From: an uncultured Poribacteria bacterium | GTDB taxonomy: Bacteria > Poribacteria > WGA-4E > WGA-3G | DNA length: 64,000 nucleotides | Direction: 5' to 3' | NCBI GenBank assembly: GCA_951813565.1 | Contig: OX638351.1 | Location: 3,584,001 to 3,648,000 of the forward strand | In this document: positions 6,840 through 47,584 of the stretch, one piece after another | Layout: every line of letters starts with the position of its first letter | Position numbering within the stretch: the first letter of the stretch is position 1 | Position numbers and translations under genes: made by a program | Notes under the pieces: generated by a model | The model's input: the letters and a program-made list of their open reading frames with translations, nothing else | What the model was told of the DNA's origin: nothing | The model's database searches: none

Positions 6840-7171
6840 ATGGCAAAACGAAGAGAACTCATTCGGACAGAAGAAGAAAAACAGGAACTGATTGAATATC
6901 CAGATCATCACGACCGTCCTGATGTAAGAGAAAAAGCTGCTGCGTTGTTGAAAATAGCCGAAGGTGTTTCGGCACACTGGGTTTCGACCTATGGGTTACT
7001 CAAACGCCGCAAACCTGATACCATTTACAGATGGTTGAATATATATGACGAAGAAGGTTTTGATGGGTTAATCCAGCGGCAGCATGGCGGAGCAAGACAG
7101 CGATTTTCAAAAAAAAAAAAGAAGAACTATTAGAACGTGTGCGCCAAGCCCAGATGAAGTTGTGGATAAAG
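6840..7171 (+). pseudogene. IS630-family transposase N-terminal HTH part (OrfA), truncated
   Basis: VREKAAALLKIAEG...PDTIYRWLNIYDEEGFDGL HTH. It is followed by an A12 run (7109-7120) and no DDE domain. Confidence 0.7.
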
Positions 7172-7835
7172 CGAAAGGTGTCATCAAGACGATCACAATC
7201 AAACGTGACAGGTGCGGTGATTATTGGATATGCTTTTCGTGCGAGAATGTTGACGATTCCAAACCAAACGCCAAGACGGGTAAGAGCGCAGGGTTTGATT
7301 ATGGAAACAAAACATTTCTAACAAGCGACGAAGGCGATAAGATACAATCACCGCAGTTTTTCAAACAATCACTCAACACGTTGCGATCTCTCAACAAAGC
7401 ACTCAGCCGTAAAGTCAAAGGTTCTAACAACTGGTATCGTGCATACCGTGCTTTAGCAAGACAACACAGAAAAGTTGCCAGACAAAGAGAAGATTGGCAG
7501 TGGAAACTGACTGACAAACTTTGCACGGAGTTTGATACACTCTACTTTGAAACTTTGAACCTTAATGGTATGAAACGGCTTTGGGGACGCAAAGTCTCTG
7601 ACCACGCCTTCTACCATTTCGGACAGATACTGGAACAGAAGTTGTGAAGCACGGCAAAAAACTTGTGCAAATCAGTCAATGGACAGCAACGACAAAACCT
7701 TGCAGTGATTGTGGATACCATAACGAAGAACTTTCTCTTTCAGATAGACAGTGGACATGCTCCGAATGTGGCTCACACCACGACAGAGACATCAACGCTG
7801 CTATCAACATCAAACGGGCCGGCTTGGCTGCCTAA
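7172..7835 (+). pseudogene. tnpB: IS200/IS605-family TnpB, 5'-truncated and frameshifted
   Basis: RuvC-I GFDYG, RKVKGSNNW, RuvC-II FETL, zinc finger CSDC...CSEC and RuvC-III DRDINAAINI. Frameshift near 7645. Confidence 0.9.
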
Positions 7836-19886: not shown

Positions 19887-20152
19887 TGAAAATCTTTCTC
19901 CTAAGTATACTATGGTTTGGACAATTTTAAAAGTTTCCGTCCGGTAGATTTAGGTTAAATGAGACGCTGGACAGATCAGAGAGATTCTGATACACATTTC
20001 GCCCCGCTGGGGCTAAAGAGGTGTGGAGCAATGTTTTTCTATAAACATTCCGCCCCGCTGGGGCTGCTCTTATCGCATCCGATATATGTTTTTTCTGTGA
20101 GTCTTTACAAAAACGCAACTCATAGAAAATAATTTTTAGTGCTCAACTAACT

Positions 20153-20449
20153 GAGGGGTGTGCATAAATAATTCCGATGTTAAATATGCGCTTAAAGGTA
20201 GTCCGCACACGTCGTGGGTTTCCGTCCACAAGTTCAAAGAGGCGCAGCATGCCACACGGGGAATGCCATAAGGCATTCATACCCGCCAAATGCCTCAATG
20301 GCATTTGTAGCGTTGATTTCTTGATTTGGCGCATGCTGCGTTGATTTGGCAATGAATTGCGCGACTACAAACGCATTTCTATAAATCAAGCGGCACATGG
20401 CGTCTGTCCCTGTCTGTGTTGATGCGCCAAATATTTATGCACACCCCTC
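20153..20449. mobile_element. IS256-like MITE, copy 1
   Basis: 18-bp TIR GAGGGGTGTGCATAAATA with 8-bp TSD AACTAACT (20145-20152 and 20450-20457). Confidence 0.85.
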
Positions 20450-20487
20450 AACTAACTAGTAGCCCCAGCGGGGCGACAGGTGTATCA

Positions 20488-20576
20488 TACCAAATTAACG
20501 AGTTTTGTATTGTTTTCACTGCCGAGAACACGGGCGGGCACAGAGACCCGCCCCTACGATTTTGGGTAATTTGGTA
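20488..20576. mobile_element. 89-bp mini-MITE carrying a REP
   Basis: TIR TACCAAATTA flanked by TCA on both sides. Internal GGGCGGGCACAGAGACCCGCCCCTAC. Confidence 0.55.
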
Positions 20577-23754: not shown

Positions 23755-24074
23755 TGTTATAGCGGATTCTACAATTAACTGGACATCTGAGCTGTCCGAG
23801 TGATCTCCGATTCCCGACTATTAGTGGTTTCGTCGCGATTCGGAGATCACTCCTACAGAATATATGTGAACTTATTTACATAATTTACTATAATGTGTGT
23901 TTAAAGGTAGTAGACACGCTCCGCATGCCGTAAACAGTTTAAAAGTGGCAACAAATACCAAACGCTTATTTGGCAATAAATTACGCGACTACAATCCGGA
24001 TTTCTACAAATGAGGAAGCACCTAAAGTACGGCACTGTCTGTGTTGCTGCGCCAAATAATTATGCACACACCTC
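23731..24074. mobile_element. IS256-like MITE, copy 2, inserted in the TPR gene 5' end
   Basis: Imperfect TIRs GAGGGATAGGCATAAATA / ATTATGCACACACCTC, homologous to 20153-20449. 8-bp TSD AAGTATCT (23723-23730 and 24075-24082). Confidence 0.8.
23760..23890 (+). mobile_element. ~130-bp TA-flanked MITE, copy 2 (nested)
   Basis: Matches the reverse complement of 13381-13511. TA lies on both sides, and removing it restores colinearity with the IS256-like MITE copy 1. Confidence 0.8.
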
Positions 24075-24124
24075 AAGTATCTTAGCATTTGAAGACTGAG
24101 ATTTCCCTTATGATTTAACTAAAA

Positions 24125-24158: not shown

Positions 24159-24938
24159 TTATTGACGGCGGTCTGCCTTAATGACTCCCCATGTTGTAGC
24201 CAGTTTCTCCGCGGGGTCTACCGGTGCAAAATCGCCAGCTTTGATTGTGTTAATCTCTGCTTCAGAAAGAATTCGATTAAAGAGATACACCTCATCAATG
24301 GTCCCTGTGAAAAATTCCTGACCGGGATGCCTTGCACCAACCATAATTGATCCGTCGATCTCAATGATTTGGGCAGGGTTATTATCAGTACCTACTTTAT
24401 TGCCATCATAGTAAATTGCAGACTCAGATTTAGGGTCATGTGTTACAGTAATATGCACCCAATCTTCGGGTTGATCTACATCAGAAATAGCTTCTGGAGA
24501 CCAGTTTGGATCTTTAGAATAAAGATAAGTTTTTTTATTATTGTTATTAAAAATAGTTGCCCATACAAGTGGACCAGCAGAAACCATATAGTTCCATTCG
24601 CTAATTTGCGCATTTCCGCGTTTGACCCAAAATGCTATGGTAAACTGTTCTCTTAACTGTAAAGTGTCGTTAATTGGCACTTTTACATGAGTTCCCTTTG
24701 TGCCATCAAATTCAAGTGCTTTGCCACCAAATTGTCCATCAACCCATGTAGGATCTTTGATAAGTTCGCCATCATGTCCATATTCAGAACTATCTTTGGC
24801 AGTGGCACCCTTGCCTTCATCAAAGGAAAGATATAACACGAGCGATTTATCGTCCAAACCTGCATACGATGGTGTGATAACGATTAACAGTGTTAATATT
24901 GCAACAAGCCCTATTGTAAATTGTAGAAATTTGCGCAC
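24159..24938 (-). CDS. Secreted LamG-like jellyroll domain protein
   Basis: Signal peptide, LVLYLSFDEG.G...DSS, G.ALEFDG, W.HI.VT, F.G.IDEV.LFNR.LS..EI and a C-terminal KLATTWG.IK motif. Confidence 0.9.
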   Translation of the reverse strand: MRKFLQFTIGLVAILTLLIVITPSYAGLDDKSLVLYLSFDEGKGATAKDSSEYGHDGELIKDPTWVDGQFGGKALEFDGTKGTHVKVPINDTLQLREQFTIAFWVKRGNAQISEWNYMVSAGPLVWATIFNNNNKKTYLYSKDPNWSPEAISDVDQPEDWVHITVTHDPKSESAIYYDGNKVGTDNNPAQIIEIDGSIMVGARHPGQEFFTGTIDEVYLFNRILSEAEINTIKAGDFAPVDPAEKLATTWGVIKADRRQ

Positions 24939-39066: not shown

Positions 39067-40716
39067 TTAGAAAACTTCATTATAATTGTCTGGTAAATCA
39101 TTCTCAAAAAGGACTACATCACCCGGTTTCAAATGTTTTGCAAGTTGTTGCTGTGCTTCAGCGAGGTCCTTCGCAACATAAACCTGTTGTTCAGGATAGT
39201 TTGCGGTTTTGAGTCCATCTAAAATCGGAGCAGTTCTTGCCGGACCAACAAGGATAACGAAGTCACATACCTTAGCTGCTTCCGAGCCGAACTGCATGTT
39301 TTCATCGTATTCGCGTTCGCCAAGTTCCACCATACCTGGCGTAACTAAAACCTTTTTCCCATCTTTATCGCTTACAAAATCAGTGAGCACCTCAAGTGCC
39401 GCTTTCGCCCCTTCAGGATTTGCGTTGAAACTGTCGTCAATTACAGTTACACCGGAGCCTCCAGCTATCAGCTGCAAACGGTGTGGAACTGGTTCTAATG
39501 CTTCAAGTGCTTCTCGAATTTCGTTCAATGTCATCCCACATTGCAGTGAGACACCAATAGCAGCGAGGATATTTGAGACATTATGCTTTCCAAGGAGTCG
39601 GGTTGTGATTTCGGTTGTGCCCGCCACCTCGTCAATTACAGCAAAAGTCAGTCCTCTATCACTCTGTTTAATATTGTGTGCTCTCAACCTCAAAGATGAT
39701 GTATTCTCAACTCCATTTGATTCTACACCGTATCGTATAACAGGGACACTATCGGTTTTGTCTGCCAACGCTGCACAAATTTCATTGTCCGTATTAATAA
39801 CTGCAAGACCATTCGGAGGTAACGCTTCGATTAACTCATACTTTGCGCGGGCAGTATTTTCAATACTTTTGAACCGTTCTAAATGTTGGGGACCCACAGC
39901 AGTGAGTATCCCTACTTCCGGTGGCGCAAGATGACATAGTTCGCGAATATCGCCACGTTTATACGCGCCCATTTCAACGATAAAATATTCATGTTTCGGC
40001 AATAAATCTCCTCTGATGACCTTACAAATACCCATCGGCGTATTATAACTATCTGGAGTCATTAACGTGTTATATTTTTTTGATAAAATCTGATGGAGAA
40101 TATATTTGGTGCTTGTTTTTCCGTAGCTTCCAGTAATTCCGATGATTTTTGGCTGAAGGGTTTTGATACGTTTCCGTGCGTCGCGTAAATAGACTCCGTT
40201 TATTAATTGCTCTAATGGCCAAATTAAAAAACTGCTCACTATAAGAATAGGTACCGTGAGTTCACTAAACAGAAATAGGCTTATACGCCATCGGTTTTCT
40301 CCTACAGAAAACACGAGTACTGCCGCAAGGACAGCAAGTAATGCAAGTGCCAATCCAAAAAGTCGTTTTGCGCGGGCAGTATAAACAAGTGGTTTTTTTG
40401 CTGCAGACTTCTTACGCCATACAATCTTATAAACTTGGAACGCTATCCAGATTGAACAAGCAGCGAGAAAAAACCAATTGGTCTGAATATTAGAAAAAAC
40501 AGACGCAATCGTTAGGAAACCCACGATCACAACTACCTCTATGATTTCAAAGCAGTTTTTAATGTGTGTCAAAACCCATTTCAGGTAACGTCCGGGTTTA
40601 TAACCATCAAGTTGTAGTATATGTAGTCCGCGGCTTGTCCGAATAACAGCTCTAATAAAACAAGCGACAATAAGAATATAAAAAAGGACTATGCTAACCA
40701 TTTCTAACATGTTCAT
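39067..40716 (-). CDS. murF: MurF ligase with an N-terminal multi-pass membrane domain
   Basis: ITGSYGKTSTK, VEMGA, HLERF, DDSFNANP and TPGMVELG. The first ~170 aa are hydrophobic. Confidence 0.9.
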   Translation of the reverse strand: MNMLEMVSIVLFYILIVACFIRAVIRTSRGLHILQLDGYKPGRYLKWVLTHIKNCFEIIEVVVIVGFLTIASVFSNIQTNWFFLAACSIWIAFQVYKIVWRKKSAAKKPLVYTARAKRLFGLALALLAVLAAVLVFSVGENRWRISLFLFSELTVPILIVSSFLIWPLEQLINGVYLRDARKRIKTLQPKIIGITGSYGKTSTKYILHQILSKKYNTLMTPDSYNTPMGICKVIRGDLLPKHEYFIVEMGAYKRGDIRELCHLAPPEVGILTAVGPQHLERFKSIENTARAKYELIEALPPNGLAVINTDNEICAALADKTDSVPVIRYGVESNGVENTSSLRLRAHNIKQSDRGLTFAVIDEVAGTTEITTRLLGKHNVSNILAAIGVSLQCGMTLNEIREALEALEPVPHRLQLIAGGSGVTVIDDSFNANPEGAKAALEVLTDFVSDKDGKKVLVTPGMVELGEREYDENMQFGSEAAKVCDFVILVGPARTAPILDGLKTANYPEQQVYVAKDLAEAQQQLAKHLKPGDVVLFENDLPDNYNEVF

Positions 40717-40933
40717 AATCTCTCATAAATCATTTATTTATACAGCGGATAGTAAATAGCAAAAACGCAATGAATCTTGCTGCTACGAAATACTTTTAGC
40801 AGCGACATTATTCATTGCGCCATCACATGCAATTTAGATTGAACAACTACGGGTGTGTAAATATTTGGTTACATAGGTTCAATTTGCAATGATTACGCGG
40901 CGTTTTCCACTGTAGAGCGGGGTCCCTGTGCCT

Positions 40934-41204
40934 CATAGCCGTCAATTTAAGGATATACCCTCTTGTGGGAGTGAATCAACGCAGCATGCGCGTCCGGCAT
41001 GCTGCCAAATCAACGCCAAATGCGCTTTTTGGCATTTGTCCAAATCAACGCAGCATGCGCGTCCGGCATGCTGCCAAATCAACGCCAAATGCGCTTTTTG
41101 GCATTTGTCGGGTTTTCAACCCCGATAAATACATATAAATCGGGCTTATAAAGCCCTCCCACAAGAGGCAATCTGGTAATTGTGTGCTTAAATTGACGCC
41201 TATG
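40934..41204. mobile_element. IS4 (IS231-like ends) MITE nested in a REP
   Basis: TIR CATAG(C/G)CGTCAATTTAAG, flanked by a duplicated GCGGGGTCCCTGTGCC. Confidence 0.7.
40972..41109 (+). repeat. Head-to-tail array of four CAAATCAAC-hairpin micro-units (69-bp period)
   Basis: Units at 40972-41005, 41006-41040, 41041-41074 and 41075-41109, in the order A-B-A-B. Confidence 0.85.
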
Positions 41205-41260
41205 GGCGGGGTCCCTGTGCCCCGCCACTACGCAGGACGTGCCATGCAACGGGCAGGCAC

Positions 41261-41390
41261 CAAATCAAGAAATCAACGGTATGAACCATGGCGAATGCCA
41301 TACGGGGAATGCCAGCAGGCATTCATACCGTTGATTTGGCGCATTCGTCTTTAGTCATTCACCGGGTCCGAATGCCTTTTGGCATTCCCC
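41261..41390 (+). repeat. 95-bp CAAATCAAG...GGCATTCCCC micro-element carrying a 35-bp inverted insert
   Basis: Matches 47451-47545 once 41304-41338 is removed. Confidence 0.85.
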
Positions 41391-41522
41391 GGAGACCCGC
41401 CCCTACAATAGGAGTTGTGCGGATTTCTACAAAAACTTTACACACCCAACAACTACAGAATCTGATATTCCGTTCTCAGTCAGATTATTTTTTTGGCAAA
41501 ACTTGCCATCGGTTCCAGTTGT

Positions 41523-47334: not shown

Positions 47335-47584
47335 ACAGTCTATCTCATAAATCGTTAAATACGTTTCCTTACACAGGTTCTACATTCATCGTAGGGGCGG
47401 GTCCCTGTGCCCGCCCATTGTTTACACTTATGAGAGAGATGGCGAGGCACCAAATCAAGAAATCAACGGTATGAATCATGGCGAATGCCATATGCGCATT
47501 CGTCTTTAGTCATTCACCGGGTCCGAATGCCTTATGGCATTCCCCGGGACCTCGCCCTACAAATGATTTATGAGATACGCTCTA
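47335..47584. mobile_element. MITE containing an inverted REP pair and a micro-element
   Basis: TIR core TATCTCATAAATC (47341-47353 and 47565-47577). REPs GTAGGGGCGGGTCCCTGTGCCCGCCC and GGCGAGGCAC..GGGACCTCGCCCTAC. Confidence 0.75.
47451..47545 (+). repeat. 95-bp micro-element in a REP loop
   Basis: Second copy of the 41261 element, without the nested insert. Confidence 0.85.

Follow-up and report, generated by a model that had tools for sequence, protein, structure and literature searches.

Very small hairpin repeats of Poribacteria that sit inside other hairpin repeats and inside their own copies

Known small repeats and the Poribacteria unit

How repeats without genes, such as REPs and SDRs, are able to spread has long been an open question. 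The small dispersed repeats SDR1-8 of Nostoc, reportedly described by Elhai et al. in 2008, are said to be 21-27 bp long, to nest within their own copies and to carry compensatory changes in their stems. One of them, SDR5, is described in PMC4390886 as inserted precisely into the HIP1 palindrome. The GTAG- or CGTC-tagged REPs and the related REPINs and RAYT systems combine a tag with a hairpin, are intergenic, reach hundreds of copies and form arrays, and the CGTC repeats have no linked transposase (PMC3733652, PMC3116915, PMC8266576). PATEs and non-autonomous IS200/IS605 elements are gene-less, generate no target-site duplication (TSD) and have an imperfect hairpin near an end (PMC10055086), and IS91-type HUH elements have asymmetric ends, one exact and one inexact, again with no TSD (PMC13181058).

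We examined a 64,000-nt stretch (G000:C1:3584001-3648000, hereafter the window) of the genome of a sponge-symbiont bacterium of the Poribacteria, G000, which is assembled as a single contig of 5.43 Mb. Parsing nested units from the inside out gave 802 copies genome-wide of a repeat designated family 1, each with a 9-base leader followed by a hairpin of 25-27 bases. The units are 34-36 bp long in 759 of the 802 cases; another 38 measure 32 bp because they have lost 4 bases to a family-2 insert. They are non-coding and asymmetric, and they lack terminal inverted repeats (TIRs) and target duplications, both of which had already been reported as missing in an earlier note on this DNA. Only 11 units lie inside long ORFs (in a parse of G000 that gave 674 units), and these are mostly false calls, so the family is intergenic; the array and the stack within 40972-41390 are located between cell-wall genes. 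For the 9-base start, 2.25 occurrences would be expected in the window and 11 are present, a count reached in none of 100 shuffles; three of the 11 sit in genes and have no hairpin. All nine stretches to which the earlier note had assigned the repeat can be read in the sequence, with a start motif above chance. The family-1 units are real, and in kind they are very small hairpin repeats.

The window contains 12 family-1 and two family-2 units, of which the parse gave 10 and one, respectively, the stack at 47451 being decomposed by hand with its inner coordinates set by the match to 41261-41390 (Table 1). Where the earlier note saw a single family of 34-95 bp, the unit itself is 34-36 bp, and the pieces of 71, 95 and 130 bp are nested stacks that include family 2. 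Similarly, the copy at 40972, which had been taken as degenerate, is a regular unit of the TG-leader type (124 copies), and 41041-41109 repeats 40972-41040 (67 bp identical). The note also overlooked that 40972-41390 sits inside a TIR element with a 9-bp duplication. Family 2 is a leaderless 28-bp form with the family-1 hairpin tip and a 3-base tail, present as 107 units in G000. A third sister form, also leaderless, has the same hairpin and a 4-base tail and is found in 33 genomes, all within one genus that is rich in units. Both leaderless families replace about 4 target bases (window 41287-41349 and 47477-47504; L273-L284). A tail motif common to all sister families was considered and rejected, since the third family shows that the matching bases are host sequence.

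Table 1. Repeat units, stacks and host elements in the window (coordinates from its first base)
Position	Strand	Feature
20153..20449	.	Second TIR-bounded host, holding the 20244 stack; 8-bp direct repeat 20145-20152 / 20450-20457; read from sequence
20244..20348	-	Stack of 105 bp within a palindromic repeat; its outer unit is 34 bp long and has a clean C|G junction
20258..20328	-	71-bp stack in loop of 20244 outer unit: 35-bp unit plus 36-bp unit (20285-20320)
20527..20558	+	Unfilled REP, taken as empty site in the earlier note; A follows loop C
40851..41447	+	597-bp non-autonomous TIR element (ISKra4-type MITE) with array and 130-bp stack; 9-bp duplication 40842-40850 / 41448-41456
40926..40927	+	Empty homologous site in the 597-bp MITE; filled paralogs have a 35-bp unit, one base lost
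40972..41005	+	34-bp family-1 unit, TG leader; G|G junction of REP-like hairpin
41006..41040	+	35-bp family-1 unit, CA leader, tandem
41041..41074	+	34-bp family-1 unit, CA leader, tandem
41075..41109	+	35-bp family-1 unit, CA leader, final array member
41261..41390	+	130-bp stack: outer 35-bp unit (41261-41268 and 41364-41390) enclosing three more units
41269..41363	+	Inner family-1 unit at leader/hairpin border of the 41261 outer unit
41287..41349	-	28-bp family-2 unit, 4 bases replaced; split by 41304-41338
41304..41338	-	35-bp family-1 unit, clean C|G entry in tip of family-2 hairpin
47451..47545	+	95-bp stack in loop of GTAG REP doublet: outer 35-bp unit, inner unit 47459-47518, family-2 unit 47477-47504

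A common fold, consisting of a 9-bp stem, a bulge of one base and one further pair, is shared by 27 units taken from the window and from GTDB loci. Two-sided changes occur at four of the 10 pairs, and none of 500 shuffles is as high in paired cells or in score, for a set of kin sequences picked by their stem pattern. Among 75 stem variants in G000, G.T mismatches of the reverse strand outnumber the opposite kind by 38 to 17, which points moderately to a strand on which the hairpin comes first and the tag last; the corresponding figures in relatives are 13 and 9, and for variants with at least two copies the difference is not significant. The hairpin therefore probably folds on the strand opposite to that read in the earlier note. 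Viewed on the hairpin-first strand, the target ends in C, the hairpin join is exact and base losses fall at the tag end. Inverted hairpin tips are rare (6 of 619). Orientation relative to replication is only slightly biased (354 against 294, with an unreliable skew), and orientation relative to flanking genes gives no clear signal (55 same, 73 opposite).

In common with the SDRs of Nostoc and its relatives, the Poribacteria unit is a very small hairpin that enters palindromes precisely and for which no enzyme is known, and it displays the compensatory hairpin upkeep and self-nesting that SDRs are said to have. By description it is set apart from them by its length, by a fixed single-stranded tag, by two junction classes, one of which involves target loss, and by its occurrence in another phylum. 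It resembles REPs in combining a tag with a hairpin, in its intergenic arrays and copy number and, like the CGTC repeats, in having no linked transposase. In contrast to REPINs and REPs associated with RAYT, its 7-base tag is different and lies 3′ of the hairpin on the better-folding strand, with no GTAG-type tetranucleotide 5′; it is single rather than an inverted doublet, it invades REPs, and no RAYT gene is flanked by it. Like PATEs it is gene-less and makes no TSD, but it has one hairpin only and no conserved tetranucleotide (4-5-base) target, and left and right hairpin ends matching a host TnpA element were not found for it in G000. Its asymmetric ends, one of them imprecise, recall IS91, from which it differs in lacking a tetranucleotide target by the exact end and in an imprecision that removes target bases instead of capturing donor flank. 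In the IS110 family a core dinucleotide is common to both junctions, whereas units whose leader begins with CA (the CA class) have C|C at the left and C|G at the right, and the other classes show target loss. On the features tested, the unit falls outside REPINs, PATEs, IS91 and IS110.

Other features of the window were recorded in passing. At 23963-24082 the repeat found around 20339-20457 recurs in decayed form, and the hairpin unit in it is damaged. The gene at 24159-24938 encodes a LamG-type lectin domain protein with a weaker match to the clostridial neurotoxin receptor-binding Pfam model, which represents the same fold. Within a Mur ligase gene, 39553-39635 is a dense substitution cluster in three of four sequencing runs, possibly a recombined patch.

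Junctions, empty sites and larger host elements

The hairpin end is precise and the leader end variable. Tabulated across the genome, the junctions are non-random, G being the next base after 764 of the 802 units, whereas the first two leader bases are CA in 473 copies, TG in 124, GA in 69, GG in 44, CG in 41, TA in 29, AG in 13 and others in 9. The rule that units sit at C|G, proposed in the earlier note, holds for the CA class: 449 of its 473 copies, and 97 of its 117 contexts, obey it. Of the 34 CA contexts with an empty match, 19 are clean, five lack one base, seven match only if a substitution is allowed and three are of other kinds, the clean count leaving out a CA-at-G|G row of 42 copies that is a parser artefact. 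A further 44 CA contexts have no empty match. The rule does not extend to the remaining 329 copies. Where these can be compared with an empty site, 1-4 target bases have mostly been replaced, as in 30 of the 40 TG, GG, CG and TA contexts with an empty match, the remainder being clean (eight) or substituted (two), with 42 others unmatched. Since insertion at C|G regenerates the target, head-to-tail arrays are explained for the CA class, as had been suggested. Many of the non-CA insertions replace the A of the GTAG tag of a REP, and these units can be read as an 8-base leader with an extra G after the hairpin, the total length staying the same with a one-base shift; many non-CA insertions fall on the C|T step when the GTAG tag is read in reverse.

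Conservation of the target is restricted to the junction base and a run of G, with GGG following the hairpin in 37 of the 50 TG contexts in G000 and in 48 of the 117 CA contexts. There is no clear preference for loops. Of the non-tandem C|G contexts, 21 of 66 are in a loop or at a loop edge, compared with 96 of 400 random intergenic CG sites, and the earlier description of the junctions as mostly in hairpin loops is not supported. Targets are, however, in stronger hairpins (60% versus 21.5% below -8 kcal/mol).

Empty paralogous sites exist, and single units fill them, symmetric or fold-back forms numbering 12 only. Removal of 20258-20328 from 20244-20348 restores the unit at 41041 save for two loop bases, as the earlier note had reported. 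It had also equated 41261-41390 minus 41304-41338 with 47451-47545; the resulting length of 95 bp is correct, but the two differ at three positions (26, 43 and 84) rather than one. The REPs near 20531 and 47392 that it took as clean empty sites have A-G after the loop C, not G-G, and genome-wide such A-bearing loop forms number 134 and 71, against six clean-C|G forms for the 41260 site and one for 47450. No filled and empty pair for a single unit was seen at one orthologous locus in 800 kb of G104 and G106, among the loci listed; in the same comparison the relatives are about 83% identical and cassettes turn over whole. The four sequencing runs consist of contigs throughout, and these break at the repeats.

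The 597-bp element at 40851-41447 is absent from all 19 relatives with both flanks aligned (of 29 loci examined), and in 13 of the 19 the flanks nearly abut. Its paralogs have target duplications of their own, and its ends also bound a 1.46-kb element that encodes a 439-aa ISKra4-family transposase and has 26 copies. With TIRs, an 8-9-bp duplication and an autonomous partner with the same ends, it is an ISKra4-type MITE, comparable to the ISKra4-group MITEs (Mutator/IS256 superfamily) described in PMC3942029; the MITE is the vehicle and is distinct from the micro-unit. The 49 spans of this MITE on the G000 contig (for example at 654193, 1537541, 4475240 and 4875989) form a size series from a core of 94-96 bp to more than 660 bp, with a duplication of at most one mismatch in 24 of them; the growth is by accretion of REPs, other repeats and micro-units. 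The site of the 41261 stack holds 35, 71, 95 or 130 bp in paralogs, and the site at 40926-40927 is empty in 12 and filled in six of the 18 spans scored among the 49. Because the MITE carries both, the 40972 array and the 41261 stack arrived as cargo, and most window copies are cargo of larger elements rather than independent insertions. Across G000, 87 of 648 units fall in TIR-bounded spans, and most copies are concentrated in a few host contexts.

The hosts nevertheless comprise many different repeats, so that the units are not a fixed part of one known MITE, and the earlier view of small asymmetric units entering REP-type palindromes and their own copies is supported. The family-1 unit, placed as it is within other hairpin repeats and within its own copies, behaves as a mobile element of very small size: it has moved in the past, with polarity and with two junction classes, and host repeats have amplified it.

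Distribution and candidate enzymes

A pattern for one subtype detects the unit in 79 of 176 genomes of the Poribacteria phylum, all of one family: 38 of 39 in the unit-rich genus, 39 of 65 and one of one in two other genera, and none of 64 outside the family. The reversed control pattern has no matches in the 176 genomes. In the GTDB collection a pattern of the unit matches at least 106 stretches, and 79 of the 80 matches listed are Candidatus Poribacteria. The phage and plasmid collections gave no match to the unit, and Rfam gave one sub-threshold miRNA match and none above threshold. A literature search, largely of freely readable main texts, found no description of such repeats in Poribacteria. 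Relatives show insertion contexts other than those of G000. Two of the genomes that carry the unit are G093 (one contig, 92% complete, 43 pattern matches) and G086 (94%, 25 matches); 60 kb of G093 contains several damaged copies and one array of identical copies. That array, seven identical 35-bp units head to tail at G093:C1 ~1044373-1044620 (L246), lies in a genome without a Y1 or RT match.

No candidate enzyme tracks the family among those tested (RAYT, IS605 TnpA, IS110 and reverse transcriptases). G000 has five IS605-type Y1 genes and five that are RAYT-like or solo Y1, and their flanks are their own ends or GTAG REPs, with at most a unit within a REP; motif matches occur at four of 30 RAYT loci and four of 30 IS605 loci. 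Y1 genes are present in 105 of the 112 genomes of the family irrespective of units, and the unit-bearing G093 and G086 have no PF01797 or NF047646 match. RAYT clade 242007 was rejected as the mover, being found in 59 of 65 genomes of the unit-poor genus and 30 of 39 of the unit-rich genus, as was the CRISPR reverse transcriptase, whose query matches 36 of 65 and 12 of 39, respectively. The RVT_1 model had no match in four of five unit-rich relatives. The IS110 DEDD recombinase had no match in G000 or in five genomes (controls matched in 6 of 14), and the IS91 Y2 search matched none of five genomes, with the control genomes silent too. Target and end motifs of the IS605 elements of G000 differ from those of the unit, and Cas1-Cas2 integration, for which the length would suit a spacer, was rejected as there is no duplication. 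In the search for a long autonomous copy, leader halves were paired with orphan arms at distances of up to 6 kb; among the pairs listed, the intervening genes are ordinary and no repeated transposase is enclosed. The HUH link drawn in the earlier note gains no support here: no transposase is enclosed among the listed pairs, RAYT genes are flanked by GTAG REPs instead of these units, and two unit-bearing genomes have no Y1/RAYT match. These enzyme negatives are weak, given the kinship of the genomes and the possibility that an enzyme is lost once a burst is over.

Several enzyme genes were noted alongside. The window contains a truncated IS605-type TnpB (7084-7647, OrfB_IS605 match) with about 30 related genomic copies. 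G000:C1:811749-813284 (L238) encodes a Drt4-type antiviral reverse transcriptase above the NCBIfam cut-off. A stand-alone group-II-like RT lies between a CRISPR array and cas1 at G000:C1:3988991-3996100 (L239), with a micro-unit in downstream spacer DNA, and has close homologs in many genomes of the family. Small contigs of G110 (C1, C3, C5, C11 and C12; L285-L287) carry many RT frames of 700-1436 aa that are more like eukaryotic retroelements binned along.

Possible routes of insertion

We tentatively favour the reading that the family-1 unit is a non-autonomous single-strand element joined in trans by an HUH/Y1-type enzyme. The element would be the 34-36-bp unit, with a 9-bp stem, a bulged tip and an 8-9-base single-stranded tag, working on the reverse of the strand used in the earlier note, hairpin first and tag last. 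An enzyme supplied in trans, most likely an HUH/Y1-type nuclease, would bind the folded strand and cut after C, and the hairpin end would be joined to a target strand cut after C within an extruded palindrome. Resolution of the tag end, through a second cut or through flap repair by the host, would be less exact, leaving this end either clean (CA class, C|G) or 1-4 bases further along. REP doublets, TIR MITEs and tandem duplication would then raise the copy number passively. We infer a single-stranded substrate and recognition of tag and tip by a protein; HUH chemistry is a guess by analogy, because HUH systems typically cut after C, make no duplication, recognise hairpins and have one end that is inexact (PMC8266576, PMC13181058). 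RAYT enzymes cut after C at CT and CA, and at CC with an altered guide (PMC8266576); the reverse-strand targets of the unit end in C, and many non-CA sites are C|T, whereas the main class is C|G. By the rule given in PMC8266576, a guide of RAYT type on the strand of the earlier note would pair with C|G; this was tried and rejected, as that strand tolerates mismatches worse and such a guide could not yield the C|C left junction.

The reading is favoured by junction polarity, nesting, empty MITE sites, stem covariation, strand bias and the presence of Y1 genes in nearly all genomes of the family. It is weakened because no enzyme tracks the units and G093 and G086 have no Y1 match, because the strand that folds better carries no GTAG-like tag 5′ of its hairpin, and because the strand bias is weak in relatives, the replication bias is slight and no orthologous single-unit pair was seen.

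An unlikely alternative needs no dedicated enzyme: a stalled nascent strand ending in C or CC at a palindrome primes on another copy, copies hairpin and tag, and returns at 1-2 bases of microhomology. Such template switching accommodates the enrichment of C runs (GGG on the opposite strand) where the junction is precise, the short deletions at the variable junction, the 12 fold-back forms and the presence of units in genomes without a Y1 match, but a protein that recognises the unit is implied by the conserved 7-base tag, by the near-constant length and by the bulged tip, which is conserved and keeps a fixed orientation, and the units are limited to one family. We consider it improbable that the unit travels as a 34-base circle which an unrecognised non-HUH recombinase or integrase opens in either of two registers about a spacer of two bases. 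CA-class and G-leader units are equally long, as if one circle had been opened one base apart, and the known candidate enzymes fail; the target losses of 1-4 bases are unlike conservative recombination, and the IS110 searches of G000 and of five genomes found nothing.

Target-primed insertion gives one exact and one variable junction with small deletions. The likeness to this pattern, together with the CRISPR-linked RT and the Drt4 RT of G000, is what speaks for RNA-templated insertion, in which a small hairpin RNA would be reverse transcribed at the target; RVT_1 is not found in most of the unit-rich relatives searched, the CRISPR RT is commoner in the unit-poor genus and there is no orientation link to flanking genes, and we think this route very unlikely. 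We give equally little credence to the idea of an ancient entry into a small number of repeats, after which the units have spread as cargo only, via MITEs, REP doublets and tandem duplication, which suits the 40972 and 41261 copies, the units in TIR-bounded spans and the few contexts that hold most copies, but not the 117 CA and 50 TG contexts in one genome, the other contexts in relatives or the presence and absence of units among near-identical MITE copies.

A bolder proposal, which we regard as doubtful, goes beyond the HUH/Y1 reading. The units may be mobile elements of a class of their own, each a single hairpin of 28-36 bases, in which three or more sister families have the same hairpin tip. 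A polar reaction (hairpin end exact, 0-4 target bases lost opposite) would splice them into extruded palindromes, and the enzyme would be neither a reverse transcriptase nor a member of RAYT, IS200/IS605, IS91 or IS110. The family offers hundreds of junctions with empty paralogs, a polar rule and short substrates, so that enzymes can be tested with oligonucleotides. Should RAYT prove responsible, the family would be a case of single-hairpin insertion by RAYT in vivo; should the enzyme be new, it would provide a compact means of inserting short DNA without duplication.
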